Positions 37,640-53,730 of a stretch of DNA of 64,000 bases are shown one piece after another. Made by a program: the position numbers and the translations under genes. Each line of letters begins with the position of its first letter. Position 1 is the first letter of the stretch. The notes beneath the pieces were generated by a model. It had not been told where the DNA came from. It saw only the letters and a list, made by a program, of their open reading frames with translations, and searched no databases. The DNA comes from Candidatus Cryptobacteroides sp. (lineage in GTDB: Bacteria > Bacteroidota > Bacteroidia > Bacteroidales > UBA932): NCBI GenBank assembly GCA_045643085.1, contig JAZUKB010000008.1, positions 13,137 through 77,136 of the forward strand, written 5' to 3'.

Positions 37640-37641
37640 TT

Positions 37642-38661
37642 ATGGCAACACTTACAGCAAAGGATTTCAAGAGCGACCAGGAAGTGCGCTGGTGCCCCGG
37701 ATGCGGGGACCACGCCGTGCTTGCGTCACTCCAGAGGGCGCTTCCAAAGGTAAGCCAGGCCCTCAATTATGATAAGGAAAGATATGTCATCGTTTCCGGT
37801 ATCGGGTGCTCGTCCAGACTTCCGTACTATATGGATACCTACGGATTCCACAGTATCCACGGACGTGCCACGGCCATAAGCACCGGAATCAAGGTGGCCA
37901 ATCCGTGGCTTACGGTATGGCAGGTCTGCGGGGATGGTGATGCGCTGGCAATCGGTGGCAACCATTTCATACACGCCATCCGCAGGAATATAGACATCAA
38001 CGTCATCCTGTTCAACAATCAGATATACGGTTTGACCAAGGGACAATACAGCCCTACTTCCAAGTTCGGAGCCATTACTAAGACATCCCCGTACGGAACC
38101 GTGGAGCATCCTTTCAATCCGGGATCGCTTGTCCTAGGTGCGAAGGGGACTTTCTTCGCGAGAAGCCTGGACGTGGAACTTGCCCTCAATGAGGAGATTA
38201 TGACGGCGGCTGCACTTCACGACGGATGCTCTGTTATGGAGATGCTTACCAACTGTGTGATTTTCAATGATGGAGCACATAAGAATCTGTCAGATCCTGC
38301 CGTAAGGGCGGACCATACGATTGTCCTCAGACACGGGGAGAAGATGATATTCGGAAAGGAAAGGGACCGTGGCCTCGTGTACGACGGCAAGAAGATCCGT
38401 GCAGTCCGCATCGGGGAAGGAGGATATACCGAGGATGATATACTCGTCCACGATGCCCATACGGACAACATCGGCATACATATGGCTCTGGCTGATATGA
38501 AAGGACCGGATTACCCTGTCGCCCTCGGTGTCATCAGGGACGTCAAGAGCATCACTTATGATGACGGAGTCCGCGATCAGGTCAAGGACGTGATGGCCAA
38601 GTCATCAATACACAGCGTTGACGATCTGCTTCACAGCGGATCCACTTGGGAAGTGAAATAA
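37642..38661 (+). CDS. korB: 2-oxoacid:ferredoxin oxidoreductase beta
   Basis: WCPGCGD, SGIGCSSR, GDGD TPP motif, YGLTKGQ.SPT. Confidence 0.93.
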   Translation: MATLTAKDFKSDQEVRWCPGCGDHAVLASLQRALPKVSQALNYDKERYVIVSGIGCSSRLPYYMDTYGFHSIHGRATAISTGIKVANPWLTVWQVCGDGDALAIGGNHFIHAIRRNIDINVILFNNQIYGLTKGQYSPTSKFGAITKTSPYGTVEHPFNPGSLVLGAKGTFFARSLDVELALNEEIMTAAALHDGCSVMEMLTNCVIFNDGAHKNLSDPAVRADHTIVLRHGEKMIFGKERDRGLVYDGKKIRAVRIGEGGYTEDDILVHDAHTDNIGIHMALADMKGPDYPVALGVIRDVKSITYDDGVRDQVKDVMAKSSIHSVDDLLHSGSTWEVK

Positions 38662-38675
38662 ACATTTATTTCTAT

Positions 38676-40019
38676 ATGAAAACTCAACAAATAATGGCCG
38701 GACTCCAGGCCAAGTACCCTGGCGAGAATGAGTATCTCCAGGCCGTACAGGAGGTTTTGGAATCAATCGAGGATGTGTATAACCAGCATCCTGAGTATGA
38801 GAAGGCAAAGATTGTCGAAAGGATGGTCGAGCCTGACCGCATCTTCACATTCCGCGTGACCTGGGTGGACGACAAGGGCGAAGTTCAGACAAACCTTGGA
38901 TACCGTATCCAGTTCAACAGTGCAATCGGACCTTACAAGGGTGGACTTCGTTTCCATAAGGCTGTTACCCCTTCAATGTTGAAGTTCCTTGGTTTTGAGC
39001 AGACATTCAAGAATGCGCTCACCACTCTCCCTATGGGTGGAGCCAAGGGCGGTTCTGATTTTGACCCTGTCGGCAAGAGCAATGATGAGATAATGCGCTT
39101 CTGCCAGGCGTTTATGTGGGAACTTTGGAACTGCATAGGACCTGATCAGGATATCCCGGCAGGTGATGTTGGCGTGGGTGGCCGAGAAATCGGTTATTTG
39201 TACGGAATGTACAAGAAACTAGCCCGGGAATACAATACGGGAGTGCTTACAGGAAAGGGCGGCACCTGGGGTGGTTCCATCCTTCGCCCGGAAGCTACCG
39301 GTTTCGGTGCACTTTATTTTACGCAGAACCTTCTTCACAAGGCGGGAAAGGACATAAAGGGCTGTAAGGTCGCCATTTCAGGTTTCGGAAACGTCGCCTG
39401 GGGGGCCTGCACCAAGGCTACTCAGCTCGGCGCCAAGGTGGTTGCCATCTCCGGTCCGGACGGAGTGTGCGAGATCCCTGACGGCATTACCCCTGAGATG
39501 ATAGCATATATGCTTGAGATGCGTGCCTCCAACCGTAACAAGGTCGAGGATATGGCCACAAAGTTCCCGGAAAAGACGAAGTTCACCGCCGGCAAGAAGG
39601 CCTGGAGTGTAAAGTGCGATATCGCGCTCCCTTGTGCATTCCAGAACGAACTTTCAGAGGATGATGCTAAGGAACTCAAGTCAAATGGAACCTGGTGCTG
39701 CTGCGAAGTCAGCAATATGGGCTGCCAGCCTGGCGCCATCCACTATTTCCAGAACAACGGAGTGCTTTTCGCCCCTGGTAAGGCAGTCAATGCCGGTGGA
39801 GTTGCGACATCCGGACTCGAGATGACCCAGAATGCCAGCCATATCAGCTGGAGCGCCCAGGAGGTCGATGATAAGCTGCATTTCATTATGGATTCCATCC
39901 ACGAACAGTGCGTCAAGTTCGGTACACAGCCGGACGGACACGTCGATTATGTGAAGGGAGCCAACATCGCAGGGTTCATGAAGGTGGCTCAGGCTATGCT
40001 TGAGCAGGGTATCGTCTAA
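38676..40019 (+). CDS. gdhA: Glutamate dehydrogenase (NAD(P))
   Basis: GPYKGGLRF, GGAKGGSDF, PAGDVGVG, RPEATG, SGFGNV, NAGGVA. Confidence 0.96.
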   Translation: MKTQQIMAGLQAKYPGENEYLQAVQEVLESIEDVYNQHPEYEKAKIVERMVEPDRIFTFRVTWVDDKGEVQTNLGYRIQFNSAIGPYKGGLRFHKAVTPSMLKFLGFEQTFKNALTTLPMGGAKGGSDFDPVGKSNDEIMRFCQAFMWELWNCIGPDQDIPAGDVGVGGREIGYLYGMYKKLAREYNTGVLTGKGGTWGGSILRPEATGFGALYFTQNLLHKAGKDIKGCKVAISGFGNVAWGACTKATQLGAKVVAISGPDGVCEIPDGITPEMIAYMLEMRASNRNKVEDMATKFPEKTKFTAGKKAWSVKCDIALPCAFQNELSEDDAKELKSNGTWCCCEVSNMGCQPGAIHYFQNNGVLFAPGKAVNAGGVATSGLEMTQNASHISWSAQEVDDKLHFIMDSIHEQCVKFGTQPDGHVDYVKGANIAGFMKVAQAMLEQGIV

Positions 40020-40047: not shown

Positions 40048-40084
40048 GAGGGCATCGGTCAGCCGACCGATGCCCTCGCTTTTG
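40048..40084 (+). terminator. Intrinsic terminator after gdhA
   Basis: Perfect 13-bp stem GAGGGCATCGGTC-AGCC-GACCGATGCCCTC, then GCTTTT. Confidence 0.8.
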
Positions 40085-40132: not shown

Positions 40133-42142
40133 TTAGAACTCGAATGATTCCGGCGAGTAGTCCAGCTCTCTGCCCGGCTCTTCGAACTTCATCCTCGCAT
40201 TCTCCTCGCGTACGTCATCGACGGAATAGGTGATGGTCCAGATGTCGGATGCCAGCATCTCTTCAATCCTTTCGGTGGTCATAGGCTCGGCATACCTGAT
40301 CTGGATTGACGGAACCAGTTCGGAATTGAGTCTCAGATATGTCCCGATGACCCCTTCCTGTGAGGAAAGATAGTTGCTCAGATAAGGAAGGGCTCTCTTG
40401 ATGATAGGTTTCTCATAGTTCTGGTCCGAGAGCTCGTAAACCTTCTGCGGCTTGCCTTCGTACACTTCCACGCGTTTGCGGATGACTGTGCTGTCGCCCT
40501 CCTCATATCTTCCGTTGTATTCTGCGGTGAATTCGTCCAGCATATTGTGGAGATACGTGCTGATGTCAATAGTGCCGACGCTCTTCTCCAACCTGACAAA
40601 TTCAAAATCCACAGGGGTCGATTTGACTCCGCCGCCGTGTACCGGCATATCCAGGGACTTCTTTTCCGTAATTTCCCTCCACCAATCTTCAGAGAACTCC
40701 TCGTTTGGAGATACATATACCTTGACGATCAGAGGACAGTCATATTCGGATTCGACACCGAATATGCTCCTTCCGGTGTTACGCAGCTGAAGACCGAAAT
40801 AATTCAGGTCCAGCTTGTCATACATATTCTCCGTGCGGATGGTGATTATCTTGAGCTCGCTGAGCTGGTTCGGATCAGGACTCCATACTCTGAAATGGGA
40901 AGGGGTGAATACCTCTTCTCGTATCTTCTCTTCACTCGTGGCCTTCGGGTCGTATGTGATGATGACGGTATGGCTGCCTACATATGTCTTGACTCCGTGT
41001 ACTCCTCTCACGTTCTCCATCCTTGCCTTGAATGCCATCGAACTGCCGTAACACTTGACTGATTTGAGATTCTCGATTTTTACGGTCTCCGTCTGCATCT
41101 CTTCTGTCAGTCCCCAGGTCTCGTTGATGGTAGGAAGTTCCCATTTCCTGCCGATGATGATGGCTGCGGCAAGAAGCACTACTATGATTATCGCAGGCAG
41201 GAACCGGCACCCCTTGCTCTTGCTGCAGGAGGCTATCCGGAGCGCATTTGTAGGACAGGCTGCAACGCACTCCCCGCAAAGCGTGCAGTCAACGGAAGTG
41301 ATTCTGCCGTCGAATGCTGGTGCGTCTATGTTGTAAGGACATTTCTTCTGGCAACTGTGGCAGGTTTTGCCGCACTTTTCGTCATCTCTGATCACATAGA
41401 GAAGCTGTGTTTGCGGATTGCTGTGAAAGATTTCCAGCAGGTAGCCGAGCAGACAGGCCGCAAACAGGACTGCAGGCCAGTGGATATGTACTCCAATCAG
41501 GCTCAGCACCCAGTAAGCCAGGCCCAGGATCAGAAACCACATCCAGAACTTCAAGGAGTTGGATGCCGCTCCGAGAGGGCAGATATACCGGCACCAGAAC
41601 CGCTTTATGAAAAATCCTCCTATCAGGACAAGGCCTACCGTGACGATGGCCATCCACAGGGTTATCTCTCCCTTGAATCCCGTTGCTGCGGCATAATATG
41701 GGTCGAAGTTCTTGCAGAACAGCTCGCTGGCGGTTGCCGTAGTATAGAAAAGGACGAATAGAAGTGCGTATTTGACAATGCGGAGAAGTTTGTCCGCAAT
41801 GGATCCGGCTTTGATCTCCGCTCCTTTGACGTGCAGTTTGCAGCGCAGTTTGATCAGCAGGTCCTCCACCGTGCCGATCGGGCAGATGAATGCGCAGAAC
41901 AGCTTGCTGAACAGGATGACCGCCGCTGCCAGGGCGAAGCCCATCAATATCTGAAGCGTTGTCATACTGCACGGAAGCGAACCGTTCACTATGTATGTTA
42001 CAAATGCCTGCAGACCACCCATAGGGCAATATTTCTCAGGGTCAGTCCCCATCAGGGCAATCATCACGATGATTGCAATCAGTACGCCCCATTGCAGGAC
42101 GAATTTCGGCCAGTTGCGGCAGATGTCGTTGTTCTTTCTCAT
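40133..42142 (-). CDS. Membrane 4Fe-4S protein (NapH/FixG/NosR-like) with C-terminal HMA-like repeats
   Basis: Two CxxxCP motifs (CAFICP, CRYICP), two ferredoxin motifs, multiple TMs, and three beta-alpha-beta repeats starting VKIENLKSVKCYGSS. Confidence 0.8.
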   Translation of the reverse strand: MRKNNDICRNWPKFVLQWGVLIAIIVMIALMGTDPEKYCPMGGLQAFVTYIVNGSLPCSMTTLQILMGFALAAAVILFSKLFCAFICPIGTVEDLLIKLRCKLHVKGAEIKAGSIADKLLRIVKYALLFVLFYTTATASELFCKNFDPYYAAATGFKGEITLWMAIVTVGLVLIGGFFIKRFWCRYICPLGAASNSLKFWMWFLILGLAYWVLSLIGVHIHWPAVLFAACLLGYLLEIFHSNPQTQLLYVIRDDEKCGKTCHSCQKKCPYNIDAPAFDGRITSVDCTLCGECVAACPTNALRIASCSKSKGCRFLPAIIIVVLLAAAIIIGRKWELPTINETWGLTEEMQTETVKIENLKSVKCYGSSMAFKARMENVRGVHGVKTYVGSHTVIITYDPKATSEEKIREEVFTPSHFRVWSPDPNQLSELKIITIRTENMYDKLDLNYFGLQLRNTGRSIFGVESEYDCPLIVKVYVSPNEEFSEDWWREITEKKSLDMPVHGGGVKSTPVDFEFVRLEKSVGTIDISTYLHNMLDEFTAEYNGRYEEGDSTVIRKRVEVYEGKPQKVYELSDQNYEKPIIKRALPYLSNYLSSQEGVIGTYLRLNSELVPSIQIRYAEPMTTERIEEMLASDIWTITYSVDDVREENARMKFEEPGRELDYSPESFEF

Positions 42143-42152
42143 ATCTTCTGTA

Positions 42153-44141
42153 TTATCTGTTTATTTCATCGATTACCCGGGACATCCCGGCATACTCCTT
42201 CAAGGTCCAGAGGACAAACCTGATATCTACGCATACGCAACGGTTGTATTTGTCTGTGAATGCCTTGTCTGAAGCCAGAGACTCTTTGTTCCCGTCGAAA
42301 GCCAGACCGATCAGCTCCCCGTCGGCATTCAGGACCGGACTTCCGGAATTGCCTCCGGTGATGTCGTTGTCCGTTATGAAGTTGACCGGAAGGGGATCCG
42401 TCTGTGAGGCAAGCATCCTTTTCCATTCGGGAATAAGGTGGAATTCGTATGACGTGCTGTCCTCTTTTGCAAGAATCTCGTCACTGAACGTCTGCCAAGG
42501 CATTGCGCGCCCGTCTCTCCGGAAAGATCGTACCCTTCCGTAAGTGAGTCTCATCGTGGAGTTGGCATCAGGATATTGGGTCAGACCGTGTGAGTGCCTG
42601 CTTCTGTACATCGCGTGGGTGTACTCCTTGCCGAGTGTGCTGACAGTCGTTTCTCCCTCAAGTTTATCGGAAACGGAATTGAAATCCCGGATAGACACGT
42701 CATTGAAGAACCGGCAGAGATTGCAGTCCAAAGTGATGATCCCGTCGGTCCACAGGTAGTCCATAATTGCATCATAATCAGTACCCAGCGAGTCTTTCAG
42801 ATGCTTTTGGAAAGGTCCCCAGTACGAACTGTCGACATTCTCGAAATATGTCTCCATACTGTACCGGAACAGGTCCTTCTCCACTCTGAGATCGATTGCG
42901 GCGTATTCCTTGACAGGGTCGGCGGCCCTGTTGTTCTTCATCCGTGACGCTATGGTAGCTAGCTGTGTGCCGCGGACGAGCGTCTCCCTATAATAGATGG
43001 TGTTTCTCCGCGCATCGCTGATTGCATCATATTTACAGTCCAGCTCCGAGAGAAGTCCCTTATATGCCCCGAGAAGTTTTTTCTCTTCGCGGCGCTTGTG
43101 CCTGGCCACACCGTATCTCCCGTAACATAGCACTTCCCCTTCGTTGAGCTCCTGCACGTTGCTCAGGGAAAAATACCGGTCGGAATACTTGAGCCTGATT
43201 TCCGGATCCTCGTTCATCCAGCGGTTGATTATTGCCATCTGGTCGGCGCGGACCTTGTTCGAAACCGGCAGACTGACGTTCTGTTCGAACGCAATCTTTG
43301 CCGAAGATGCATACCGGTCCGTGCTTCCCGGATAGCCCAATATCATAGCGTAGTCTCCGGGTGCGTATCCCTGGGTGCTGATATGCAGCCTGCGTTTCGG
43401 AGAAAGAGGAACGTTGTGCCCGGAATATTCAGCCGGGTTGCCGTTCTCGTCGGCATAGATACGGTATAGCGCGAAGTCGCATTTCTGCTGCGGCCATTCC
43501 CAGTTGTCTATGTCCCCTCCGAATGCGGCGATGCTCACGGGCGGGGCTGCAACCAGTCGTATGTCCTTGTATGTCCTGTACAGGGCCAGATAATATCTCT
43601 CGCCGGCCCACATAGACGAAAGGGAAGCTTCCAGCCCGGTTTCAGCACTGTACTTCTTCTCAATCAGATAGCTTATCCTGCGCATTCCGTAACCCTTTCC
43701 GGCAGCCTTCTCTTCCTCGATTGTCGCGTTGACTTCATCGGTTACATCAAGTATCTTTTCCAGGAACTGTACGCTCTTGCCCGGGATATGCAATTCTTCT
43801 TCCGGGGTTTTTGCCCAGAATCCGTCCTCCAGATAGTTGTGCTCGTTGGTGCTCAGGGCGTGAACGTCTCCGTAGGCGCAGTGATGGTTCGTTATCAGCA
43901 GGCCCTGGTCGGAAATTATGCTTCCGGTACAGGCGAAATCAAGGGACACGATTGCGTCACTCAAGCTGACTGCATCCTCGTTGTAGATCTCACCGCTGTC
44001 CATCCGGAGCCCGCGTGTCTCCATCTGCCTTGCAAGTGACTTGGAAATGGCATTGACCATCCACATTCCTTCATCTGCCCGGACCGGCATCGGGAGGATG
44101 GCCAGTAAAATGGTGATTGATACTGAATACCTTAGTTTCAT
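42153..44141 (-). CDS. S46 family dipeptidyl peptidase
   Basis: ADEGMW, TNHHC, DNWEWP, GYPGST, PDANSTMRLTYG, DITGGNSGSP; signal peptide. Confidence 0.93.
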   Translation of the reverse strand: MKLRYSVSITILLAILPMPVRADEGMWMVNAISKSLARQMETRGLRMDSGEIYNEDAVSLSDAIVSLDFACTGSIISDQGLLITNHHCAYGDVHALSTNEHNYLEDGFWAKTPEEELHIPGKSVQFLEKILDVTDEVNATIEEEKAAGKGYGMRRISYLIEKKYSAETGLEASLSSMWAGERYYLALYRTYKDIRLVAAPPVSIAAFGGDIDNWEWPQQKCDFALYRIYADENGNPAEYSGHNVPLSPKRRLHISTQGYAPGDYAMILGYPGSTDRYASSAKIAFEQNVSLPVSNKVRADQMAIINRWMNEDPEIRLKYSDRYFSLSNVQELNEGEVLCYGRYGVARHKRREEKKLLGAYKGLLSELDCKYDAISDARRNTIYYRETLVRGTQLATIASRMKNNRAADPVKEYAAIDLRVEKDLFRYSMETYFENVDSSYWGPFQKHLKDSLGTDYDAIMDYLWTDGIITLDCNLCRFFNDVSIRDFNSVSDKLEGETTVSTLGKEYTHAMYRSRHSHGLTQYPDANSTMRLTYGRVRSFRRDGRAMPWQTFSDEILAKEDSTSYEFHLIPEWKRMLASQTDPLPVNFITDNDITGGNSGSPVLNADGELIGLAFDGNKESLASDKAFTDKYNRCVCVDIRFVLWTLKEYAGMSRVIDEINR

Positions 44142-44232
44142 AGCACAAAAATAATAATTTTATTTTTCAGAAAAATTACGATATTTGCGTATAATGCATT
44201 AGTTTTTGAATCTGATAATAATTTTGATTGAT

Positions 44233-45570
44233 ATGAAAAAATTACTTTTAGCCGTTGCGGCTATTGTGCTCGTGTCGTGTACCGCTGCACAGATTGAAGT
44301 GGAGAAAAATTATGTGAATGCCGAATTTGAAGGAGGCTCCTATACAGTGAACGTCCAGGCCAATGCTGCTTGGAACGTGGTCTCCGACGGCAAGATCGCA
44401 GGTCTCACCATTTCACCTTCAACCGGGTCCGGGAACGGGTCTTTCACTGTGAATGTCCCCGCCAACAATACAAAGGAGGAGAGACAGAGTACCCTCGACA
44501 TCAAGTGTGACAACGGATCATCGTATGCAACGACCCAGGTGATTGTCTTTCAGGATGCATTCTTTGCGTCCATTGACATAAACAAGACATCGATGATCAA
44601 ATCCAACGCCGGCGTATATCTCAAGCAGACTGTGACTTCCAATTTCCCTTGGACCGTGACAGTGACTCCTTCCGAGGGCGTGGAATTGAGCAGGACATCA
44701 GCTCCTAAGGGAGAGAACGAGATCGAGATTATCTTCCCTGCAAATCAGACCAGTGAGGATATCGATTACAAGGTTGTCTACAAGACAAATTGCGGTATTC
44801 CTGAGCTGGATGCGGAAAAGACTGTCGAGGTGACTGTCGAGGCCATCAAGTCGATTGTTTATGCAGGCGAGGAATATGACATCGCCTGGATGAAGGACGG
44901 CAGATGCTGGATGACCGAGAATCTCCGATATGTTCCGGAGGGGAAGGAAGCGTCAGCTAATCCGGCGGACAAGAGTGGTGTCTGGTATCCATATAACTCG
45001 GATGGTACCAATGTGGATGCCTTGACCGACAAGGAATCCGTAAGGAAATACGGCTTGCTTTATTCAGTAGAAACAGCGTTCGGAATTGACGGACTGACTC
45101 CGGAGAATGTCCACGATTTTGAAGGGATACGTGGTATCTGCCCGGAAGGCTGGCATATTCCTACGAGGGCTGAATATATTGCTCTTTGCGGCTATTCCAA
45201 CAAGAATGAAAGCGAGTCCGCTCCTGTTACGGACGAAACCGCTATATTCTATGACAGTGAATACAAGTCAGGAAAAATCACGACATTCAATGAAGGAGGA
45301 TGGAACTTCAGCCTTGTCGGCAGTAACAATAACGGTAAGTATCTGGCAAACGTGATCAAGAGCGACAACTGCGATGTTGAGGAGTTTCTGGGACGTCCGG
45401 CCCTCACATACTATTTCTCGTCAACAGGATATATGGGCAGTTCTGCTACTGCCAAGCCGCAGGTCTTTGCGATGATGTCCACATTCAGCAAAAACTATAT
45501 GAAAGGTAGAGCAACCGTGGCATATTGCAACTCAAATATCGGCGGATCCGTTCGCTGCGTAAAGGACTAA
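44233..45570 (+). CDS. Lipoprotein with BACON-like repeats and FISUMP (Fib_succ_major) domain
   Basis: Lipobox LVSC; WMTENLRY, YGLLY, GICPEGWHIPT..E, GGSVRCVKD. Confidence 0.85.
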   Translation: MKKLLLAVAAIVLVSCTAAQIEVEKNYVNAEFEGGSYTVNVQANAAWNVVSDGKIAGLTISPSTGSGNGSFTVNVPANNTKEERQSTLDIKCDNGSSYATTQVIVFQDAFFASIDINKTSMIKSNAGVYLKQTVTSNFPWTVTVTPSEGVELSRTSAPKGENEIEIIFPANQTSEDIDYKVVYKTNCGIPELDAEKTVEVTVEAIKSIVYAGEEYDIAWMKDGRCWMTENLRYVPEGKEASANPADKSGVWYPYNSDGTNVDALTDKESVRKYGLLYSVETAFGIDGLTPENVHDFEGIRGICPEGWHIPTRAEYIALCGYSNKNESESAPVTDETAIFYDSEYKSGKITTFNEGGWNFSLVGSNNNGKYLANVIKSDNCDVEEFLGRPALTYYFSSTGYMGSSATAKPQVFAMMSTFSKNYMKGRATVAYCNSNIGGSVRCVKD

Positions 45571-45577
45571 AAATACA

Positions 45578-48325
45578 TTGAGGAAACTAATCCTCATATT
45601 GGTTTCATTATTGGTCGGGGTGGCAGCGTTTGCGGCTCCGACCAAGTTTTCGCTGTCCGGTACTGTTCTTGACAATGGCACCGGTGAACCGCTTTCTGGA
45701 GTCGTGTTGAGCCTCGGGGAAGATTACCTGTGGGCCGTGACCGATGCAGATGGACGGTTTGTGATAAGCGGAGCGGACAAGGGAAGCTATATCTTGAAGT
45801 GCTCGTACCTCGGATATGTGGAGAACCAGAGTGAGGTCGTCGTGGATAGGAACGTTTCCGGACTCGAGATCAGGCTGCAGGAGAGTTCCCTTGCCCTCAG
45901 TGAGGCTGTCGTTACGGCAAAGCGGACGGACGGTATCAGTACTTCGCACACGCTGGGACGTGATGCGCTGAATCATCTTCAGATGTCCAATATGGCCGAT
46001 ATGTCGGCACTGCTCCCTGGAGGAAAGACCATAAATCCCGACCTGACCAATGCACAGTCCATTTCATTGCGCTCCGGAGGGATTTCCGCCGGCAATGCGG
46101 CTTTCGGTACCGCCGTCGAGGTTGATGGCGTGCGTCTTGGAAACAATGCCGGATTCGGTGAACCTTCAGGAATCGACACGAGGAGCATCAGCGTCGACAA
46201 TGTGGAAAGTATCGAGGTAATCACGGGCGTCCCTTCTGCGGAATACGGAGATCTCAACAGCGGTATGGTCAAGGTGCATACCAGGAAGGGAAGAACGCCT
46301 TTGAACGTCGTGTTTTCGGTCAATCCGCGCACCTATCAGGCTTCCGTCTCCAAAGGCTTCGACCTAGGTAGGGACAGGGGTGTAGTGAACCTCAGCGGAG
46401 AGTGGGCTCGCGCGACTAGGAAACTTTCTTCCCCTTATGAATCCTACACCAGAAGGGGAATCACCGCAGGATATTCCAACACTTTTGCGAAAGTGCTCAG
46501 ATTCGAGGCCGGAATTACCGGCAATCTGGGAGGGATGAATACAGTGGATGATCCGGATGCTTTTTCGGGAGCATATTCCAAGGCCAATGACAATGTGATT
46601 CGAGCAAATACGTCCCTGACCTGGCAGCTGAACAGATCCTGGATCACGAACATCAGATTCGAGGCATCCGTCAACTACAACGATAACCTCACCCACGAAC
46701 ACTCTTACAAGTCATTCTCCACCCAATTGCCTGCCGTACATAGTACTTATGAGGGTTATTATCTTGCGGACAGGCTCCCGGAGAAATATTATGCCGACAG
46801 GATTGTCGATTCGAAGGAACTTGATGCGGCTGCGTCCTTGAGATACACCTGGGCCAGACGCTGGAATGATATCAAGAGCAATCTCAAGGCGGGTGTACAA
46901 TGGAAGGCAAGCGGAAATCTGGGGCAGGGGGAGTATTATCTCGACAACGCCCTTGCTGCTGACGGATACCGACCGAGGCCATATAAGGATTATCCTTTTA
47001 TGCACAATCTGTCCGTCTATGCCGAGGAGGCATTGTCATTTCCGCTCGGAGAGACTACGTTTGAGATGACGGCCGGATTGCGTCTGGAGAACGTGTTCAT
47101 ACGCGGGACACGTTACAAGAATATGAACACCCTTTCCCCACGTCTGAATGCGAGGTGGAAACTTTCGGAATATCTTTCAATCAGGGGCGGATGGGGCATC
47201 ACCGAGAAACTCCCTTCTTTCTATATCCTTTATCCTGAGCAGGAATATTTTGACAGACAGACTTTCAGCGTATCCCACGGGGATGGAGGTTCGTCCTATG
47301 TGTATTATACCCGTCCGTACAGCATCGAGTACAATCCGGACCTGCGCTGGCAGCGCAACTCCAATTCCGAAATAGGTATTGACTTCGAAAAGAACGACTG
47401 GCGGATATCACTTGTCGGATTCTATAATGTCACACAGATGCCGTACCGCATTTCCGCCCGTTACACACCGTTCACGTACAGCATATATTCTCTCCCGGAA
47501 GGATATGTCATTCCGTACAGTCCGGAGATAAGGGTGGACCATCAGAGCGGGGCCGTATACCTCAGGGGTGCGTCTTCCGAGGCTTGGCAGCCGATGTCGG
47601 TTAAGGTTACCGACCGGTCTTTTGTCCGTACCACGCGTCAGGAAAACGGTGCGGACGTATATCGGGCGGGAGCCGAGTTGACGGTCGAAACTCCGGAAGT
47701 GAGGACTGTCAGGACATCGTTCCGTTTGGATGCAAGCTACACCAGGACTACCAATATCGACTGTGCGGAATCCTATTATTACCAGAATGGATGGTCGCAT
47801 ACAAGTCTCCCGAACCGGTCATATCAGTTCGTGGGCATTTATGCCAATGGCACCGGTGGCAATTCTGTCACCTGCGGAAGGATTTCAAGCGGAATGAATG
47901 CCAATCTTACATCTATTACAAGAATCCCCGAGGCCAGACTGGTGATAACCTGCAGGCTGGAGATGTCACTGCTGACAAGATGGATAAACATTCCGGCCGG
48001 TACCAGAGAATGCCTGTATCCGACGGCGTATCTCGACCTGGATGGGAACAGGCATCCTTTCACCGAAAGAGAAGCCGGCGATCCCCAGTTCTCCCAGCTG
48101 ATATTGAGACCGGGGAACGATTATATGTTCGATCAGGACGGTTACGGTCCTTATATGTCAGCCAATCTCAGCATAACGAAGGAAATCGGGGACCACGTGA
48201 GCCTTTCGTTCTTCGCGAACAATTTCACCAATTCCCGCCCTACCGTATATTCGATGGCCACCGGTGTCGGCGCAATATTCACCCCGGATTTTTATTACGG
48301 ACTTACCTGCAGACTGAAATTCTAG
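45578..48325 (+). CDS. TonB-dependent receptor (carboxypeptidase-regulatory-like N-domain, plug, barrel)
   Basis: SYLGY, L.EAVVTA TonB box, IEVITGVPSAEYGDL.SG, terminal RLKF; TTG start. Confidence 0.92.
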   Translation: MRKLILILVSLLVGVAAFAAPTKFSLSGTVLDNGTGEPLSGVVLSLGEDYLWAVTDADGRFVISGADKGSYILKCSYLGYVENQSEVVVDRNVSGLEIRLQESSLALSEAVVTAKRTDGISTSHTLGRDALNHLQMSNMADMSALLPGGKTINPDLTNAQSISLRSGGISAGNAAFGTAVEVDGVRLGNNAGFGEPSGIDTRSISVDNVESIEVITGVPSAEYGDLNSGMVKVHTRKGRTPLNVVFSVNPRTYQASVSKGFDLGRDRGVVNLSGEWARATRKLSSPYESYTRRGITAGYSNTFAKVLRFEAGITGNLGGMNTVDDPDAFSGAYSKANDNVIRANTSLTWQLNRSWITNIRFEASVNYNDNLTHEHSYKSFSTQLPAVHSTYEGYYLADRLPEKYYADRIVDSKELDAAASLRYTWARRWNDIKSNLKAGVQWKASGNLGQGEYYLDNALAADGYRPRPYKDYPFMHNLSVYAEEALSFPLGETTFEMTAGLRLENVFIRGTRYKNMNTLSPRLNARWKLSEYLSIRGGWGITEKLPSFYILYPEQEYFDRQTFSVSHGDGGSSYVYYTRPYSIEYNPDLRWQRNSNSEIGIDFEKNDWRISLVGFYNVTQMPYRISARYTPFTYSIYSLPEGYVIPYSPEIRVDHQSGAVYLRGASSEAWQPMSVKVTDRSFVRTTRQENGADVYRAGAELTVETPEVRTVRTSFRLDASYTRTTNIDCAESYYYQNGWSHTSLPNRSYQFVGIYANGTGGNSVTCGRISSGMNANLTSITRIPEARLVITCRLEMSLLTRWINIPAGTRECLYPTAYLDLDGNRHPFTEREAGDPQFSQLILRPGNDYMFDQDGYGPYMSANLSITKEIGDHVSLSFFANNFTNSRPTVYSMATGVGAIFTPDFYYGLTCRLKF

Positions 48326-48326
48326 T

Positions 48327-49526
48327 ATGAAGAGATTCTATATCATATTCCTTCTGATTCTTTCCGTTGCAGGATGCACGCGGCTGGACCGTGTAAATCC
48401 GTACGACGAGGAACTGCACGCCTTCACGGTTCAGGCCATTTATCCGGCAGGATACGAGCCTGGTGCGCAGGGTATGGGAAAGATTACGGTCGAAGATATA
48501 AATCAGGGGTCGTCATACGTGTTGACGCCTGATTCCGGAGGACGGGCCGTATTCCTTGTGCCCGACGGATTGTACAGGATAAGCGTAAGCGATGTCGGCC
48601 CTGAATGTGTGTTCAACGGCTCCGTGGACAGGGTGCGGGTTACCGGTGACAGGATTCTTGAGGTAGAGATGATGGCATCCAGAACGGGAACGATAATTAT
48701 CAAGGAAATATATTGTGGAGGCTGTATGAAGTATCCCGAACAGGGGACATATCAGTCGGACCAGTATGTCATACTCCACAACAATCATCAAATGGTGCAG
48801 TACCTGGACGGGATTTGTTTCGGAACGTTGTCTCCGTACAATTCCAATTCAAACAATCCTTACGGTACTCTGCCGGAATTCGTCCCGATAATCCAGGCAG
48901 TATGGCAGTTCCCTGGTGACGGGGATGACTTCCCTCTCAACCCGGGGGAGGATGCGGTGCTCTGTCTGCGTGGAGCAGTCGATCACAGCGCCCAGTATCC
49001 GCTTTCCGTAAATCTAAACAAACCGGATTATTTCGTATGCTATAATCCTACATACTTCACCAACGTGACCTATCACCCCGTTCCCGGGAACAATATCTCC
49101 GGATCCAGGTGGCTTGAAGTCGTCATAAAGACGGGACAGGCAAATGCCTATACATATTCCATCAATTCCCCTGCGACTGTGATATTCAAGGCCCCGAAAG
49201 GTGTGTCTATGAGGGAATGGGTGCAGACGGAAGGGGCCGTAGAGCAACTGCCGGGCAGCAGTATCGACCGCGTGGTCAAGATAGACCCAACCTGGGTGAT
49301 GGATGCCGTGGAAGTCTTCAACGGAGCGTCTACATCCAATTCAAAACGTCTGCTGCCGACACTTGATGCCGGATATGTCACGCTTTCCGGGACATTCCTC
49401 GGGCACACGCTTCACAGATATGTGGACGAGGAACAGTCCGCGCAGAAAGGGTATGAAGTGCTGATGGACAGCAACAACTCGTCCGAGGACTTTTATGAAC
49501 GTGAAACACAGAGCTTGCATGAATAG
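48327..49526 (+). CDS. DUF4876-type lipoprotein
   Basis: Lipobox VAGC; IIKEIYCGG, DQYVILHNN, YLDG, DAVE, DAG, MDSNNSSEDF. Confidence 0.8.
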   Translation: MKRFYIIFLLILSVAGCTRLDRVNPYDEELHAFTVQAIYPAGYEPGAQGMGKITVEDINQGSSYVLTPDSGGRAVFLVPDGLYRISVSDVGPECVFNGSVDRVRVTGDRILEVEMMASRTGTIIIKEIYCGGCMKYPEQGTYQSDQYVILHNNHQMVQYLDGICFGTLSPYNSNSNNPYGTLPEFVPIIQAVWQFPGDGDDFPLNPGEDAVLCLRGAVDHSAQYPLSVNLNKPDYFVCYNPTYFTNVTYHPVPGNNISGSRWLEVVIKTGQANAYTYSINSPATVIFKAPKGVSMREWVQTEGAVEQLPGSSIDRVVKIDPTWVMDAVEVFNGASTSNSKRLLPTLDAGYVTLSGTFLGHTLHRYVDEEQSAQKGYEVLMDSNNSSEDFYERETQSLHE

Positions 49527-51021
49527 GAGATTGTACATAATCGCCGCGATGCTCTGTGCGTCGCTTGCCGCTTCCGGCCAATCATATCAGAGGGCGATCA
49601 AACGCAACTTCTGGAATGAGGGCACCAATGTCGTCGGTATACGTCAGGATACCCTGTCCGCATCGAATGCGGAAATCTACGGCAACTACATTACGGGTGA
49701 GCTGAGGGCTTCAAGTGATGCCAAATCTGCCTGGACCGCCGGCGTAAGGGCTTCGGCCATCAGACATCTGAAAAAATTCTCAATGAAGGGCTCCTTCGGC
49801 TTCGAACAGATGGAAGGGCAGGGGATGGCCGGCTCCATGTTCGTCAAGCAGGGCTATTATCCGATCAACGTTTATGAATTCACCCCGGGGTCCAAGACTC
49901 TCCAGACATACTCCTTCACGGGAGGTATTTCCGTGGATATTTCACCTGAATGGAGATTGGGAGGTCAGATGCTTTTCGAATCCTCAAACTATGCAAAAAG
50001 AAAGGATCTCAGGCACACCACTTACAGGATGGATATGACGGTTTCACCGGGAGTGCAGTATCACAATGGCGACCTTGCAATAGGCTTGAATTACATATTC
50101 TCCAAAAACAGTGAGTCCGTCAGCGCCGAGCAGATTGGAAGCAGCGTTGCTTCCTATGATGTTTTCTTTGACAAGGGACTGTACTATGGTGTACGTCAGA
50201 TATGGACCGGAAGCGGTGTGCATCTCAGCGAACCGGGCGTCAACGGCTTGCCTTTGAGGGAGATTATCAACGGCGTTTCCGTTCAGGCTTCTTACGGCAG
50301 GGCGTATGCGGATGTCAGCTGGAGGGCGAGATATGGTACCGTAGGCGAGAAACAGTTCATTTGGTTCAGGTTCCCGGGGTGGGACCTGACAGCACATGCC
50401 GGATTTGCGTTTTCGGGAGACAGAGGATCCCACCGGATACTTGCCACGGCGGAGTATTTCTCACAGGACAATGAGGAGACTTCCCTGGAGAAGGTCAGCT
50501 CCGGCGGTGTCACCACCGTGGAGGAATTCGGGGCCTGTCGTATCTTCTCCCGAAGGAATATGAAAGCATCGCTTACCTATGACTACGCGTCCCGTATGCT
50601 GAACTTTTCAGCATTGCTGTCGATGACCGACCAGCAGGGTCTGGTGTCCAATATGTATCCGTATCTGATGTATCAGAGGCTGCTGCAGCCTTATGTGGAG
50701 GCCAAGGCTACCGGGCACTTCGGACGTCTGGACGTGACTTTGATGCTGTCATACAGGCAGGGATGGATGGATGATACGATGCGTGAGGTCAGTCCGTCCA
50801 CAGGTGTGACATCGGAGCCTGAGCGTCTGGAGAGTTATTTCCTGAAGTACCGTGAACATATGACTTGCCGGAATATCACCGTTGCCCCTGCTGTGAAGTA
50901 CAACTTCGGGAAGGGATTCTACGCGGAGGCCTCCGTCCGTTGGAACAGAGGTTTCAATCTGGTGTATTTCGCAGGCCCGGACAGAACGTCCGCTACGCTG
51001 CGGTTGGGATACGATTTCTAG
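49519..51021 (+). CDS. Outer membrane beta-barrel protein (DUF6850-like)
   Basis: Signal peptide, alternating beta strands, AKRKDLR motif, C-terminal LGYDF; typical position after DUF4876. Confidence 0.7.
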   Translation: MNRRLYIIAAMLCASLAASGQSYQRAIKRNFWNEGTNVVGIRQDTLSASNAEIYGNYITGELRASSDAKSAWTAGVRASAIRHLKKFSMKGSFGFEQMEGQGMAGSMFVKQGYYPINVYEFTPGSKTLQTYSFTGGISVDISPEWRLGGQMLFESSNYAKRKDLRHTTYRMDMTVSPGVQYHNGDLAIGLNYIFSKNSESVSAEQIGSSVASYDVFFDKGLYYGVRQIWTGSGVHLSEPGVNGLPLREIINGVSVQASYGRAYADVSWRARYGTVGEKQFIWFRFPGWDLTAHAGFAFSGDRGSHRILATAEYFSQDNEETSLEKVSSGGVTTVEEFGACRIFSRRNMKASLTYDYASRMLNFSALLSMTDQQGLVSNMYPYLMYQRLLQPYVEAKATGHFGRLDVTLMLSYRQGWMDDTMREVSPSTGVTSEPERLESYFLKYREHMTCRNITVAPAVKYNFGKGFYAEASVRWNRGFNLVYFAGPDRTSATLRLGYDF

Positions 51022-52073
51022 AAAGGAAAGAGCTTGGTCACCCAGAAGAATCCGAGGACAAGCCCGACGACTCCGATTACTATACCAACTTTCGTCATAT
51101 CCTTTGTCTCGACAAGACCGGTGGATGCGGCAATTGCATTCGGAGGTGTAGAAATAGGCAGGACCATAGCAAGTGAAGCACAGACTGCGACGAAAATTGC
51201 AAGCCCCTGCTGTCCGCCCCAGGCAAGGAATGAGGATGCGTTGCCGCTGGCAAGAAGTCCCTTGCCCATTGCTACCATAATAGGAATCAGGAGAGCGGCA
51301 GCTGCTGAATTGCTGATGAAATTGCTGAGGAGGTAGCAGATGAGACCTGCCACGACAAATATCACAACGATGTCCATCGCATCGAAATTGATGGATGTGA
51401 CCATCGTTTCTGCAAGCCCGGTACCCTCAAGAGCATATCCGAGAGCGAAACCTCCGGCTACCAGCCAGAGGACACTCCAGTTGATATCTTTTATGTCGTC
51501 CTTGGTGAACACTCCGGTCGCAGTGTAGACAGCAAGCGGGATGAGTGCTACGATGTTGGAGCTGATGCCGTGAAGTTGTTCGGTTATCCAGAGAAGAATC
51601 GTTACGGCGAAAGTTGTCCAGGCGATGTGGTCCTTCCAGCCCTTCTTGTGGTCGTCCTTCTTGATCTCAAGTATGATTCCCTTTGACTTGAATGGATAAA
51701 GCAACATAAGGAGAACCCAGGCGAAAAGTATCATTATGATGACGAAAGGAATCATACGGACAGCCCAGTCCCCGAATGTGATGTCCATACCGTTGTTCTC
51801 CAGGATGCCTTTTGCCGTGGCGTTGGGAGGGGTCCCTATAGGAGTCCCGATACCGCCTATGTTGGCGGCGATAGGAATTGCGAGACAGAGGCCCACCTTG
51901 CCTTTCTTGTCATCCTCCGGGAGGGATGCGAACACCGGGGCGAGGAATGCAAGGAACATCGCGGCTGTTGCCGTATTGCTCATAAACATGGAGAAGATGG
52001 CAATTACCATCAGTACTCCGAGAAGCACAGTCTTGGGGTTCTTGCCGAAAGGTTTGAGCAGGATGCGCGCCAT
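51018..52073 (-). CDS. SLC13/DASS family transporter, apparently N-terminally truncated (possible pseudogene)
   Basis: MSNTAT, GTPIGTPPN, ISNSA, PISTPPNA motifs. Only 351 aa and starts mid-domain. Confidence 0.75.
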   Translation of the reverse strand: MARILLKPFGKNPKTVLLGVLMVIAIFSMFMSNTATAAMFLAFLAPVFASLPEDDKKGKVGLCLAIPIAANIGGIGTPIGTPPNATAKGILENNGMDITFGDWAVRMIPFVIIMILFAWVLLMLLYPFKSKGIILEIKKDDHKKGWKDHIAWTTFAVTILLWITEQLHGISSNIVALIPLAVYTATGVFTKDDIKDINWSVLWLVAGGFALGYALEGTGLAETMVTSINFDAMDIVVIFVVAGLICYLLSNFISNSAAAALLIPIMVAMGKGLLASGNASSFLAWGGQQGLAIFVAVCASLAMVLPISTPPNAIAASTGLVETKDMTKVGIVIGVVGLVLGFFWVTKLFPF

Positions 52074-52199: not shown

Positions 52200-53669
52200 A
52201 TGAGTAGACAGTCAATGCGGGGTAGTAACTGGCCGAAAACCGTACTGCAGTGGGTTTCGTTGCTGGTTTTTATCTTTCTTGCAACCGGCCTCGCGCAAAA
52301 ATATCTGCCAGGTTCCGTGTCAGAGCTGCAGCAGCGCGTGTCCGCTTCCGGTGATTTCATCGTCAGTCTTCCGACAATGCGTCTGGCTATAGTCGTCGCG
52401 GTGTTTCTGTTTGCCGTATTCTTCACCAGATTCTTCTGCGGATACATCTGTCCAGTGGGCACCGTTCAGGATTTTCTTATGAGTCTGCGTAACGGGTTCG
52501 GAATCAGTCAGGTGAATGTGCGTCCAGGAAGGGTGTTGGATAATGTCCTGCGTCTGTTCAAGTATCTCATCCTCTTTGCGTTGACATATGTATTGATCAA
52601 TGGGATTGGGGTTCCGTATGCCCGATGGATGTTGATAGCGGTCGCCGTGATAATTGTAGTCGGAGGACTGCTGGTAGACAGATTCTGGTGCAAATATATA
52701 TGCCCGATAGGAGCATCGGTGAATACGGTCAGGTTCTGGGTGCTGTTTGTCGCTCTCACGGCGGCATTCTGGGCTTTGAATACTTTCCTGAACCTTGGAA
52801 TTGACTGGATATGGCTGCTGGCGGCATATTGCGTTTTCGGATACCTGCAGGAGATTATCCTCAGGAATACAAGGCTCCACCTGTTCCGTATCGTCAAGGA
52901 AGAGGACCGCTGTACTCATTGCGGTGATTGTGGAAGAGCCTGTCCATATTCCCTGAATGTCCAGAACTGCGGGAACAGGCTCAATGACGTGGATTGTACT
53001 CTGTGCGGAGAATGTGTTGCAGTCTGCAGGCGTAAGGCGCTTGGCGTGGGAATCGTGCGCAAGACAAGCGTGAACAGGGGTGTCGCCCGTTTCCTTCCTC
53101 CTGTATTTGCGATCCTTTTCGTCCTGGCAATCCTGTTTGTCCCAGGGATGGTCGCCCCGGAGGCATACGGTACGTCTGCGGTTGCGGAAGAGCCGGTATC
53201 CGTGGAAGAATCGGCAGACGATGTCTTGATGGAGACCCCTGAAGATACGGTGGTCCTGGTTGCCGAGCCGGAAATCATCGAGCCGGCAGGGTTCCACGAA
53301 GCGGGTATTGAGATCAAGGACCGTCGCTCCGTTTATGGCAATAACGAATGGTGGGTGCTTGAATATGTTTCGGATACTTTTGCCAATCTGGATGTCGATA
53401 CCGCCCTGCCTGTGCTTGCGGCATATTTGGGCAAATACAATGGAGCAATCGGCGTGTACAGTAGATATGATGCGGAGAACGTTCCGGTGATTGATATCTT
53501 ATACGCCAATCCTTTGCGTAAAGCTGCCATATATGAGGCAGTCGCTAAAGATACCTGGAGCTATAAGGGTGATGACGGTGTCAGTGTCTCCGTTCCGGCA
53601 GCGATAATATTCCCCGAAAAGGGCGTCGGACGCTCATACAAGGAGCATAAGGACGAATTCGGCTTCTAA
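52200..53669 (+). CDS. Membrane 4Fe-4S protein, diverged paralog of 40133..42142
   Basis: NWPK.VLQW, CGYICP, CKYICP, CTHCGDCGRACP, CTLCGECVAVC; shares the last C-terminal domain. Confidence 0.8.
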   Translation: MSRQSMRGSNWPKTVLQWVSLLVFIFLATGLAQKYLPGSVSELQQRVSASGDFIVSLPTMRLAIVVAVFLFAVFFTRFFCGYICPVGTVQDFLMSLRNGFGISQVNVRPGRVLDNVLRLFKYLILFALTYVLINGIGVPYARWMLIAVAVIIVVGGLLVDRFWCKYICPIGASVNTVRFWVLFVALTAAFWALNTFLNLGIDWIWLLAAYCVFGYLQEIILRNTRLHLFRIVKEEDRCTHCGDCGRACPYSLNVQNCGNRLNDVDCTLCGECVAVCRRKALGVGIVRKTSVNRGVARFLPPVFAILFVLAILFVPGMVAPEAYGTSAVAEEPVSVEESADDVLMETPEDTVVLVAEPEIIEPAGFHEAGIEIKDRRSVYGNNEWWVLEYVSDTFANLDVDTALPVLAAYLGKYNGAIGVYSRYDAENVPVIDILYANPLRKAAIYEAVAKDTWSYKGDDGVSVSVPAAIIFPEKGVGRSYKEHKDEFGF

Positions 53670-53688
53670 AATACCCATTATTGAGGAT

Positions 53689-53730
53689 TGCGGGACAAGA
53701 TTGCGCTGAGTAATTTTGTCCCGTATTTTT
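53689..53730 (+). terminator. Hairpin plus U-tract directly before the feoAB start codon
   Basis: 16-bp stem with G-U pairs (TGCGGGACAAGATTGC / GTAATTTTGTCCCGTA), then TTTTT, then ATG. Confidence 0.65.

Follow-up and report, generated by a model that had tools for sequence, protein, structure and literature searches.

A candidate protease- and reductase-associated TonB-dependent import locus in Bacteroidales, combining an S46 peptidase with a membrane polyferredoxin

A stretch of 64,000 nucleotides from contig JAZUKB010000008.1 of a Candidatus Cryptobacteroides sp., an uncultured bacterium of gut or rumen (hereafter, the window, whose first letter is position 1), was found to harbor, between positions 40133 and 51021, two divergent gene units that may constitute, in Bacteroidales, a TonB-dependent import system associated with a protease and a reductase, a reading to which we give about an even chance of being correct. 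One unit codes for an exported peptidase of family S46 and a membrane polyferredoxin (polyFd1), and the other codes for a FISUMP lipoprotein, a TonB-dependent receptor (TBDR), a DUF4876 lipoprotein, and a DUF6850 outer-membrane (OM) beta-barrel. Their products would probably take up a nutrient bound to a peptide or protein and break it down, with iron as the most likely case; iron is favoured only on the ground that, in cultured relatives, iron starvation induces homologous TBDR-DUF4876 loci. The gene arrangement itself is not due to chance, because the same gene sets recur in other genomes.

Organization of the Locus

The source genome is a metagenome-assembled genome of 1.45 Mb and 75% completeness, and its domains were assigned via Pfam and NCBIfam models. 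The open reading frames (ORFs) and domains recovered in this way agreed with a preliminary description of the same DNA, which had reported six tightly spaced genes around an AT-rich divergent region of 91 bp (44142–44232; 80% A+T). On the minus strand, the genes of the exported S46 dipeptidyl-peptidase (42153–44141; 662 aa; full-length Peptidase_S46 match, E 5e-171) and of polyFd1 (P0001; 40133–42142; 669 aa; two Fer4_5 domains and a 4Fe-4S dicluster domain) were separated by 10 nt. On the plus strand, a lipoprotein gene with BACON and FISUMP domains (44233–45570; lipobox LVS↓C) was followed, after 7 nt, by the gene of a TBDR of non-SusC type (45578–48325; CarboxypepD_reg, Plug, and barrel domains), after 1 nt, by that of the DUF4876 lipoprotein (48327–49526; PF16215, 124 bits; lipobox VAG↓C) and, with an overlap of 32 nt, by that of the plug-less DUF6850 OM beta-barrel (49495–51021; PF21012, 101.5 bits). 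Export signals or lipoboxes were found on the S46, FISUMP, TBDR, DUF4876, and DUF6850 proteins. As previously described, there was no SusD, glycosidase, or regulator gene within the two units.

The Outer-Membrane Module

The distribution of these genes was assessed in 55 DUF4876-centred loci, which came from 300 genomes sampled evenly across the order and from relatives within the genus. In 53 of these 55 Bacteroidales loci, DUF4876 was found together with the receptor and DUF6850, and the TBDR formed one sequence cluster across 53 of them; given this constant company, the TBDR-DUF4876-DUF6850 trio is one machine. The window receptor matched both the plug (PF07715) and the barrel (PF00593) models, as is characteristic of TonB receptors. 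No hit to the STN domain or to the SusC-family model was listed for it, and with no SusC model hit and no SusD gene in the units, the receptor and its partner do not make up a SusC/SusD-type pair. Instead, the DUF4876 lipoprotein lies directly 3′ of a non-SusC TBDR, at a gap of 1 nt, and is a homolog of a protein of solved structure and unknown function (PDB 4q1z), which is the configuration of an alternate lid; DUF4876 has indeed been put forward as a non-SusD "lid" of the receptor (bioRxiv 10.1101/2023.03.17.533168).

The second OM barrel anticipated in the preliminary description was also recovered, since the predicted model of the DUF6850 protein was an all-beta, plug-less barrel (pLDDT 87), for which Foldseek gave a probability of 1.0 to large OM barrels of the BtuB-barrel, FadL, and AlgE types, at TM 0.3–0.4. 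A full-text literature search returned no paper on DUF6850.

The first gene of the plus-strand unit is far more restricted. The FISUMP models were exceeded in both databases (TIGR02145, 60.2 bits against a cut-off of 41.65; PF09603, 71.6 against 33.9), and the BACON domain was placed at residues 67–116 of an extended ORF starting at 44206. A FISUMP lipoprotein accompanied the module only in L002, L003, L004, L006, and L116, which represent the genus of the window and one close relative (L116), and the version found in the genus relative L006 combined Mfa-like (fimbrillin-like) and FISUMP domains. This FISUMP/BACON surface lipoprotein is a candidate cargo-capture protein.

Around the trio, the DUF4876 loci carried different types of accessory genes, which comprised ABC, h223, and DUF4857 genes (~27 loci), an exported protein of ~190 aa (h195) with PepSY_TM_like_2 (22 loci), and a HEAT-repeat protein (11 loci), in addition to extracytoplasmic function (ECF) sigma factors with FecR or an anti-sigma factor, and propeller proteins of the type IX secretion system. 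In Bacteroidota of the gut and mouth, few genes are induced as strongly by iron starvation as those of TBDR-DUF4876 loci. Induction by iron limitation is known only for loci of P. gingivalis, P. intermedia, and B. thetaiotaomicron, and iron depletion was observed to induce PG1019-22, BT1933-39, and BT3625-33 by 20- to 214-fold (PMC10434189).

The S46 Peptidase and Its Linkage to the Module

The S46 protein matched PF10459 (MEROPS S46) with 571 bits, from residue 22 to 661 and from model position 1 to 697 of 698, and this full-length match, together with the export signal, bears out the exported S46 peptidase of the preliminary description. Its mature N-terminus reads DEGMW, and alignment to PgDPP11 (4xzy) showed that the His/Asp/Ser motifs and the DNW amine-recognition motif were intact (TNHHCAY, CDFALYR, GGNSGSP, and DIDNWEWP). 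Because the fold, the catalytic triad, DEGMW, and the motif recognizing the N-terminal amine are common to DPP7, DPP11, and DAP BII (PDB 4xzy, 5jwf, 3woj), the window enzyme should be a periplasmic dipeptidyl aminopeptidase. It differs from these enzymes in being ~60 residues shorter in the helical domain, in carrying WPQQKCDF for WPRHTGDF and FDGNKE for FDGNWE, and in falling in a separate, well-supported clade. The glycine at the S1 specificity position (FDGNKE) is DPP7-like, and the score against the DPP7 equivalog (NCBIfam NF053519) was 427.5 bits, below the cut-off of 1200. In the phylogeny, the window S46 belonged to a divergent subclade of 10 rows (support 99), whose members adjoin polyFd, an exported polyFd paralog designated SOLO (described below), M16, or DUF4876.

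About 104 S46 copies were counted in 56 DUF4876-positive genomes, and about 10 of them, from five families, were found within 15 kb of DUF4876, where 1.2 would be expected. The copies near DUF4876 have low Pfam-model scores and come from several S46 lineages. In L041 and L042, the gene order was TBDR, DUF4876, DUF6850, lipoprotein, Met-zincin, S46, and PepSY_TM, and in L043 it was TBDR, DUF4876, DUF6850, S46, h195, M16, and an exported FMN_bind protein. Because the gaps in these three loci are only 3–37 bp, S46 can be a true operon member of the module.

The neighbours of S46 are informative in their own right. The preliminary description had paired cleavage with reduction, and this pairing is reinforced by the finding that S46 directly adjoins a membrane redox component in six of nine loci, namely polyFd in three and PepSY_TM/h195 in the three others. 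M16, Met-zincin, and S9 peptidases and an exported FMN_bind protein also occur at DUF4876 loci. The module recruits, repeatedly and in several lineages, peptidases (S46, M16, zincin) and alternative membrane redox proteins (PepSY-type or the new polyferredoxin), and this recurrence of peptidase and redox partners restricts the hypothesis to a cargo that is reducible and bound to a peptide or protein.

Some features of these operons deserve separate record. The FMN_bind protein that closes the L043 operon (L043:17141-17650, plus strand) is a third kind of extracytoplasmic redox partner. The protein lying between DUF6850 and S46 in the two other loci (L041:10913-13204; L042:9185-11482) is a DUF4953 "Met-zincin" (with DUF5117/5118), accompanied by a Calx-beta lipoprotein, and the operon is headed by an ECF sigma factor and FecR.

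The Polyferredoxin and Its Linkage to the Module

With P0001 as the query, full-length polyFd orthologs were found in 30 of 300 other genomes. In seven of the ten other genomes having both genes, which belong to seven GTDB families, polyFd fell inside the 12-kb limit set around DUF4876, at a distance of 2–11 kb, where ~0.05 such cases would be expected; in an eighth genome (G312), a contig break seems to have cut the same locus in two. The comparison of gene neighbourhoods that the preliminary description had proposed therefore found the S46 and Fe-S genes linked to DUF4876 loci, rather than unlinked, in at least five to seven GTDB families, in collinear, divergent, and convergent configurations.

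It was also observed that polyFd takes the position held elsewhere by PepSY_TM_like_2/h195, and that the two share no locus (0 of 7 against 22 of 55; hypergeometric p 0.02, with no correction for the kinship of the genomes). In a published survey, PepSY-like and NapH-like proteins were both read as transmembrane electron conduits, and the PepSY-like ones were tied to assimilatory iron reduction and TonB receptors. We infer from this, with the replacement of the PepSY-type protein as the best argument, that polyFd may be the reductase of the system.

A contig scan seeded with the standalone polyFd domain recovered 17 further loci. In the polyFd clade of the window (17 rows, support 100), S46 and/or M16 were present in 15 of 17 loci, the other two being short contigs. 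The usual gene order in this clade was polyFd, [SOLO], S46, and M16, SOLO being optional, often with a divergent M16-S46 pair. The full TBDR-DUF4876-DUF6850 trio was present in four of these loci, and a TBDR at the locus edge in two more. Relative to the trio, the polyFd-peptidase unit has a divergent orientation in the window, a convergent one in L116, and a collinear one in L009, L010, and L117, so that adjacency is kept while orientation changes.

SOLO is an exported paralog, of 258–298 aa, of polyFd residues ~425–660. In eight loci, two of them devoid of polyFd, it immediately precedes S46 or M16, and in a single case (L114:8699-12229, plus strand) SOLO and M16 were contained in one ORF of 1176 aa. 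The SOLO domain can evidently work without the membrane Fe-S core, and SOLO and the C-terminal part of polyFd are a candidate peptidase-partner domain.

The SOLO and M16 genes overlap by 10 nt in different frames in L110 and L113, so that the L114 ORF must reflect either a genuine fusion or an error of 1 nt in the assembly. SOLO lies between divergent S46 genes, followed by M16, in L104/L040 (G158) and in L105, with no full-length polyFd in the locus. A fusion of the polyFd C-terminus with S46, considered for a 998-aa open frame in G158, was rejected, since it resolved into two genes 10 bp apart, one of them a standalone exported paralog.

More distant polyFd clades sit in ECF, TBDR-DUF4876, and ABC loci or in housekeeping contexts. 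Six distant orthologs without DUF4876 (L021, L026, L027, L029, L031, and L035), from four GTDB families, have a DPP-IV (S9) gene just downstream, and an Exo_endo_phos_3 gene lies divergently upstream of distant orthologs in 11 loci.

Anatomy of polyFd1

The polyFd family is uncharacterised and widespread, with more than 1,200 relatives in metagenomes. PolyFd1 has seven predicted transmembrane helices, two CX3CP motifs, and two [4Fe-4S] motifs, and PF12801 (Fer4_5) matched two stretches with 39 bits, which makes it a Fer4_5-type polyferredoxin. Its likeness to NapH, NosR, and CcoG is weak, the shared Fer4_5 core alone matching, and its scores lay far below the equivalog cut-offs of NapH/MauN (TIGR02163; 54.5 against 213), NosR (NF046105; 46.1 against 1000), and CcoG (TIGR02745; 16.4 against 316.7). 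Among 45 polyFd orthologs, C83/C87, C184/C188, C257–268, and C286–296 were invariant in all, as were the four periplasmic cysteines (C39, C58, C143, and C364) and the loop motifs DxExxCPxGG and ELFCxxxDP. On the basis of hydropathy and of the exported paralogs, both CX3CP and both 4Fe-4S motifs are assigned to the cytoplasmic side and residues 333–669 to the periplasm.

In the predicted model, residues 333–669 form three ferredoxin-fold domains (pLDDT 94). Domains 1 and 2 find their best fold matches in the HMA domains of Cu/Zn-ATPases and chaperones (Z 6.6–7.1, rmsd 2.2–3.3, over 67–79 residues), at Z values below 8 that denote a common arrangement, and domain 3 resembles ABM/eIF4E-like alpha+beta folds, likewise at Z<8. 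The HMA-like repeats of the preliminary description would in this sense be real, all three as predicted folds, but the CxxC metal site is absent from them. PF00403 (HMA) gave no polyFd1 hit at E<=0.01, and GMxCxxC was not present; C364, in the beta1-alpha1 loop at the position of the HMA CxxC, reads KCYGSS (CxxS), with one invariant cysteine. The whole C-terminal region had no Foldseek match in the PDB at E<=0.001, and a VIA-wide structure search returned single-domain matches only (Z<8), the ESM Atlas giving no usable hit.

A second copy in the window, polyFd2 (P0002; 52200–53669, plus strand; 489 aa), is peripheral to the finding but instructive in one respect. This lineage-specific paralog has 33% identity to polyFd1 and lacks the four periplasmic cysteines and the first HMA-like domain; that it lost all four together with domain 1 suggests that these cysteines work as one site. 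The C-terminal 190 residues of polyFd2 had only a self-match among 5.8 billion proteins, at the sensitivity of that search.

Intergenic Region and Neighbouring Genes

Within the divergent gap, TAnnTTTG-like elements are present on each strand, and a perfect 15-bp palindrome, ATTTTTCAGAAAAAT, is located at 44162–44176. This palindrome occurs once in the genome, with two sites of one mismatch elsewhere, and with a single genomic copy it was rejected as a recognisable regulon motif. No regulatory motif was found in the gap, where no search aimed at Fur boxes was made, and a sigma-70-type promoter scan is uninformative for Bacteroidales. At the other end of the minus-strand unit, a G+C-rich hairpin of 13 pairs (nine G-C) at 40048–40077, between the convergent glutamate dehydrogenase (GDH) gene and polyFd1, is likely the terminator bounding the S46-polyFd1 unit.

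Beyond this hairpin, the region 35792–40019 carries 2-oxoacid:ferredoxin oxidoreductase (Kor) alpha/beta-like genes and the GDH gene, preceded by BamA and OmpH. The GDH/Kor genes were considered as part of the unit and rejected, as their synteny is not conserved in related loci. On the opposite side, a CitMHS/DASS-type transporter ORF (51018–52073, minus strand) is convergent with the DUF6850 gene, overlapping its stop by 4 nt. It looks N-terminally truncated, because only part of the profiles is matched (positions 64–320 of 336 for CitMHS and 111–457 of 472 for Na_sulph_symp). It is followed by polyFd2 and by a gene for a FeoA-FeoB fusion, a ferrous iron transporter (53716–56085, plus strand), whose start codon is abutted by a 16-bp hairpin at the polyFd2 end (52200–53725).

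The preliminary description had assigned to this FeoAB the uptake of released Fe(II), a proposal that the comparison did not support. FeoAB is a neighbour only, since none was found in the 31 polyFd loci, and among the ORFs of the other 54 DUF4876 loci, none fell into a cluster with that of the window FeoAB.

Proposed Mechanism and Alternative Explanations

In the proposed import system, the surface lipoproteins would capture a cargo bound to a peptide or small protein, and the receptor would import it on TonB energy. In the periplasm, S46 (M16 or other peptidases in relatives) would degrade the peptide carrier from its N-terminus, while polyFd would carry electrons across the membrane to a cysteine-ligated site on its outer face. 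There, the metal, whether set free or still bound, would be reduced, Fe(III) being the most likely one. PolyFd would thereby replace the PepSY-type reductase of most sister loci, and its periplasmic ferredoxin-fold domains would probably dock, or hand over to, the peptidases.

Several observations weigh against this mechanism. S46 is present in only 9–10 of the 55 DUF4876 loci (about one in six), and a search with P0001 recovered no polyFd from five of six genomes of the same genus that retain the TBDR-DUF4876-DUF6850-FISUMP genes and the same S46 clade; polyFd and S46 are therefore accessories of the module, not core parts. About 20 polyFd orthologs lie away from any DUF4876 locus, in housekeeping contexts, and the genomes are related, so that the enrichment statistics overstate independence. 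Regarding the enzymes, S46 peptidases act on oligopeptides, not on folded proteins, and the window contains no endopeptidase; the HMA-like domains of polyFd lack CxxC, and their fold matches (Z<8) reflect a common arrangement. Moreover, outward electron delivery is not established for this fold, because CcoG, the only biochemically characterised relative cited here, has been described as cytoplasm-facing. Finally, the FeoAB adjacency is not conserved, being unique to this genome.

A bolder form of the mechanism, which we regard as doubtful, would make polyFd the core of a hitherto unrecognised "reductive proteolysis" station in the Bacteroidales periplasm, in which the imported cargo is reduced and degraded in one complex. 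In such a station, the three loop cysteines and the CxxS cysteine of domain 1 would form an outward redox or metal site fed by the Fe-S clusters, and the other ferredoxin-fold domains would physically recruit S46 and M16. If this were true, both the envelope redox enzyme and the way in which proteins or peptides are used through TonB would be of a new kind.

The rival that survives best, which we nevertheless consider unlikely, is peptide nutrition with reductive unfolding, in which host or dietary oligopeptides would serve as carbon and nitrogen source with no metal involved, and polyFd would be a periplasm-directed disulfide reductase, using a cysteine thiol relay like that of DsbD or CcdA to open disulfide-linked peptides for the exopeptidases (S46, DPP-IV, M16). 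The four invariant periplasmic cysteines and the lack of a canonical metal motif fit this proposal, although no thioredoxin-fold partner is present. It also gains from the adjacency of polyFd to unrelated periplasmic peptidases even without a TBDR, which include S46 and M16 in clade I, DPP-IV (S9) in six loci of four families in clade III, and M20, and from the standalone domain paralogs that adjoin, or are fused with, peptidases. The amino-acid catabolic genes just upstream in the window (GDH and 2-oxoacid:ferredoxin oxidoreductase) would suit a peptide diet as well, but this synteny is not kept in relatives. The homologous TBDR-DUF4876 loci respond to iron, not to peptides, and the proteins that polyFd replaces are of the PepSY type, for which a link to iron reduction exists.

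It is quite unlikely, in our judgement, that two independent functions merely lie side by side, with the trio importing a small iron chelate and S46 and polyFd (plus M16 in relatives) forming a separate peptide-processing unit, so that their proximity would reflect shared regulation or envelope-gene clustering and not a shared substrate. Such independence would account for the ~40 of 55 DUF4876 loci without S46 or M16, for the clade-I polyFd-S46-M16 clusters without a TBDR within 8 kb (L104–L108, L112, and L118), and for the genus relatives that keep the module and in which polyFd was not found. It is harder to reconcile with single operons in which TBDR, DUF4876, and DUF6850 are continued by (lipoprotein, zincin) S46 and PepSY_TM or by S46, h195, and M16, with an adjacency that survives at least three rearrangements within one clade, and with the recruitment of several independent S46 lineages.

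A role in acquisition or detoxification of copper or another thiophilic metal, with polyFd as a CcoG-like cupric reductase and metallochaperone-like HMA-like domains, is very improbable, since the Fer4_5 core common with the cupric reductase CcoG, the HMA fold matches, the precomputed PF00403 hits or source name "copper chaperone CopZ" of some homologs, and one ortholog (L033) adjoining a P1B-type ATPase are set against a CxxS site with a single Cys in place of CxxC, a CcoG model score of 16 bits against 317, the lack of a FixG_C domain, the iron regulation of relatives, and a copper ATPase neighbour seen only once.

The elements that appear to be new here are the mutual exclusion of polyFd and PepSY-type proteins, the four invariant periplasmic cysteines, the three-domain periplasmic part, and the standalone exported SOLO next to S46 or M16. 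If the import system proposed above is real, protease-associated import, so far described in Proteobacteria, would extend to Bacteroidales, with possible relevance to nutritional immunity and to competition for iron in the gut and rumen.

Comparison with Known Systems

In full-text literature, no paper was found on this gene combination, and none joining polyferredoxin, TonB-dependent, Bacteroid*, and peptidase. The earlier statement that no functional description exists therefore holds for the combination, but not for its parts: DUF4876 loci are known to be induced by iron depletion, a lid role has been proposed, and import systems associated with proteases have been described.

Regarding its redox protein, polyFd1 has in common with NapH, NosR, and CcoG (PF12801) the two Fer4_5 units with CX3CP, the 2x[4Fe-4S] domain, and the polytopic core. 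It differs from them in lacking FMN_bind and FixG_C, in the four invariant periplasmic cysteines and the three periplasmic ferredoxin-fold domains that are unique to it, and in its genomic partners, which are peptidases and TBDRs and not respiratory reductases.

The closest relatives of the OM module are the iron-induced TBDR-DUF4876 loci (PG1019-22; BT1933-39, BT3625-33), with which the window shares the TBDR subfamily and the directly downstream DUF4876. About half of the 55 sampled loci carry ABC, h223, and DUF4857 as in BT3625-27, whereas the window has no ABC/DUF4857, PepSY, or HEAT-repeat genes and possesses instead polyFd, S46, and the FISUMP/BACON lipoprotein. XusABC of B. thetaiotaomicron, which is strongly iron-regulated, follows the same logic, in which a non-SusC TBDR is combined with a lipoprotein serving as surface lid and with an inner-membrane protein (PepSY) whose family is reductase-like. 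However, its lid is DUF4374 and not DUF4876, it includes no second barrel, peptidase, or Fe-S protein, and its cargo is enterobactin or salmochelin.

In the Fus system of Pectobacterium (FusA/B/C/D) and in YddB/PqqL of E. coli, a TonB-dependent OM transporter is encoded with a periplasmic protease (PMC6071955, PMC6042079, PMC6793856). Fus imports and proteolyses an iron-bearing protein, PqqL is expressed under iron limitation, and such clusters have been described in Proteobacteria (PMC6071955, PMC6042079, PMC6793856). Membership of the window locus in the Fus family was rejected, as the window has no M16 gene of the FusC/PqqL type; its peptidase is an S46 exopeptidase, its receptor would belong to a different subfamily, and it adds a lid lipoprotein, a second barrel, and a membrane redox protein that is absent from Fus. 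The likeness is one of function only, and M16 peptidases do accompany the polyFd-S46 unit in most relatives of the window locus. In this way, the best-supported reading is that the locus would represent a Bacteroidales analogue of Fus and YddB/PqqL, in which a new polyferredoxin takes the place of the PepSY-type reductase.

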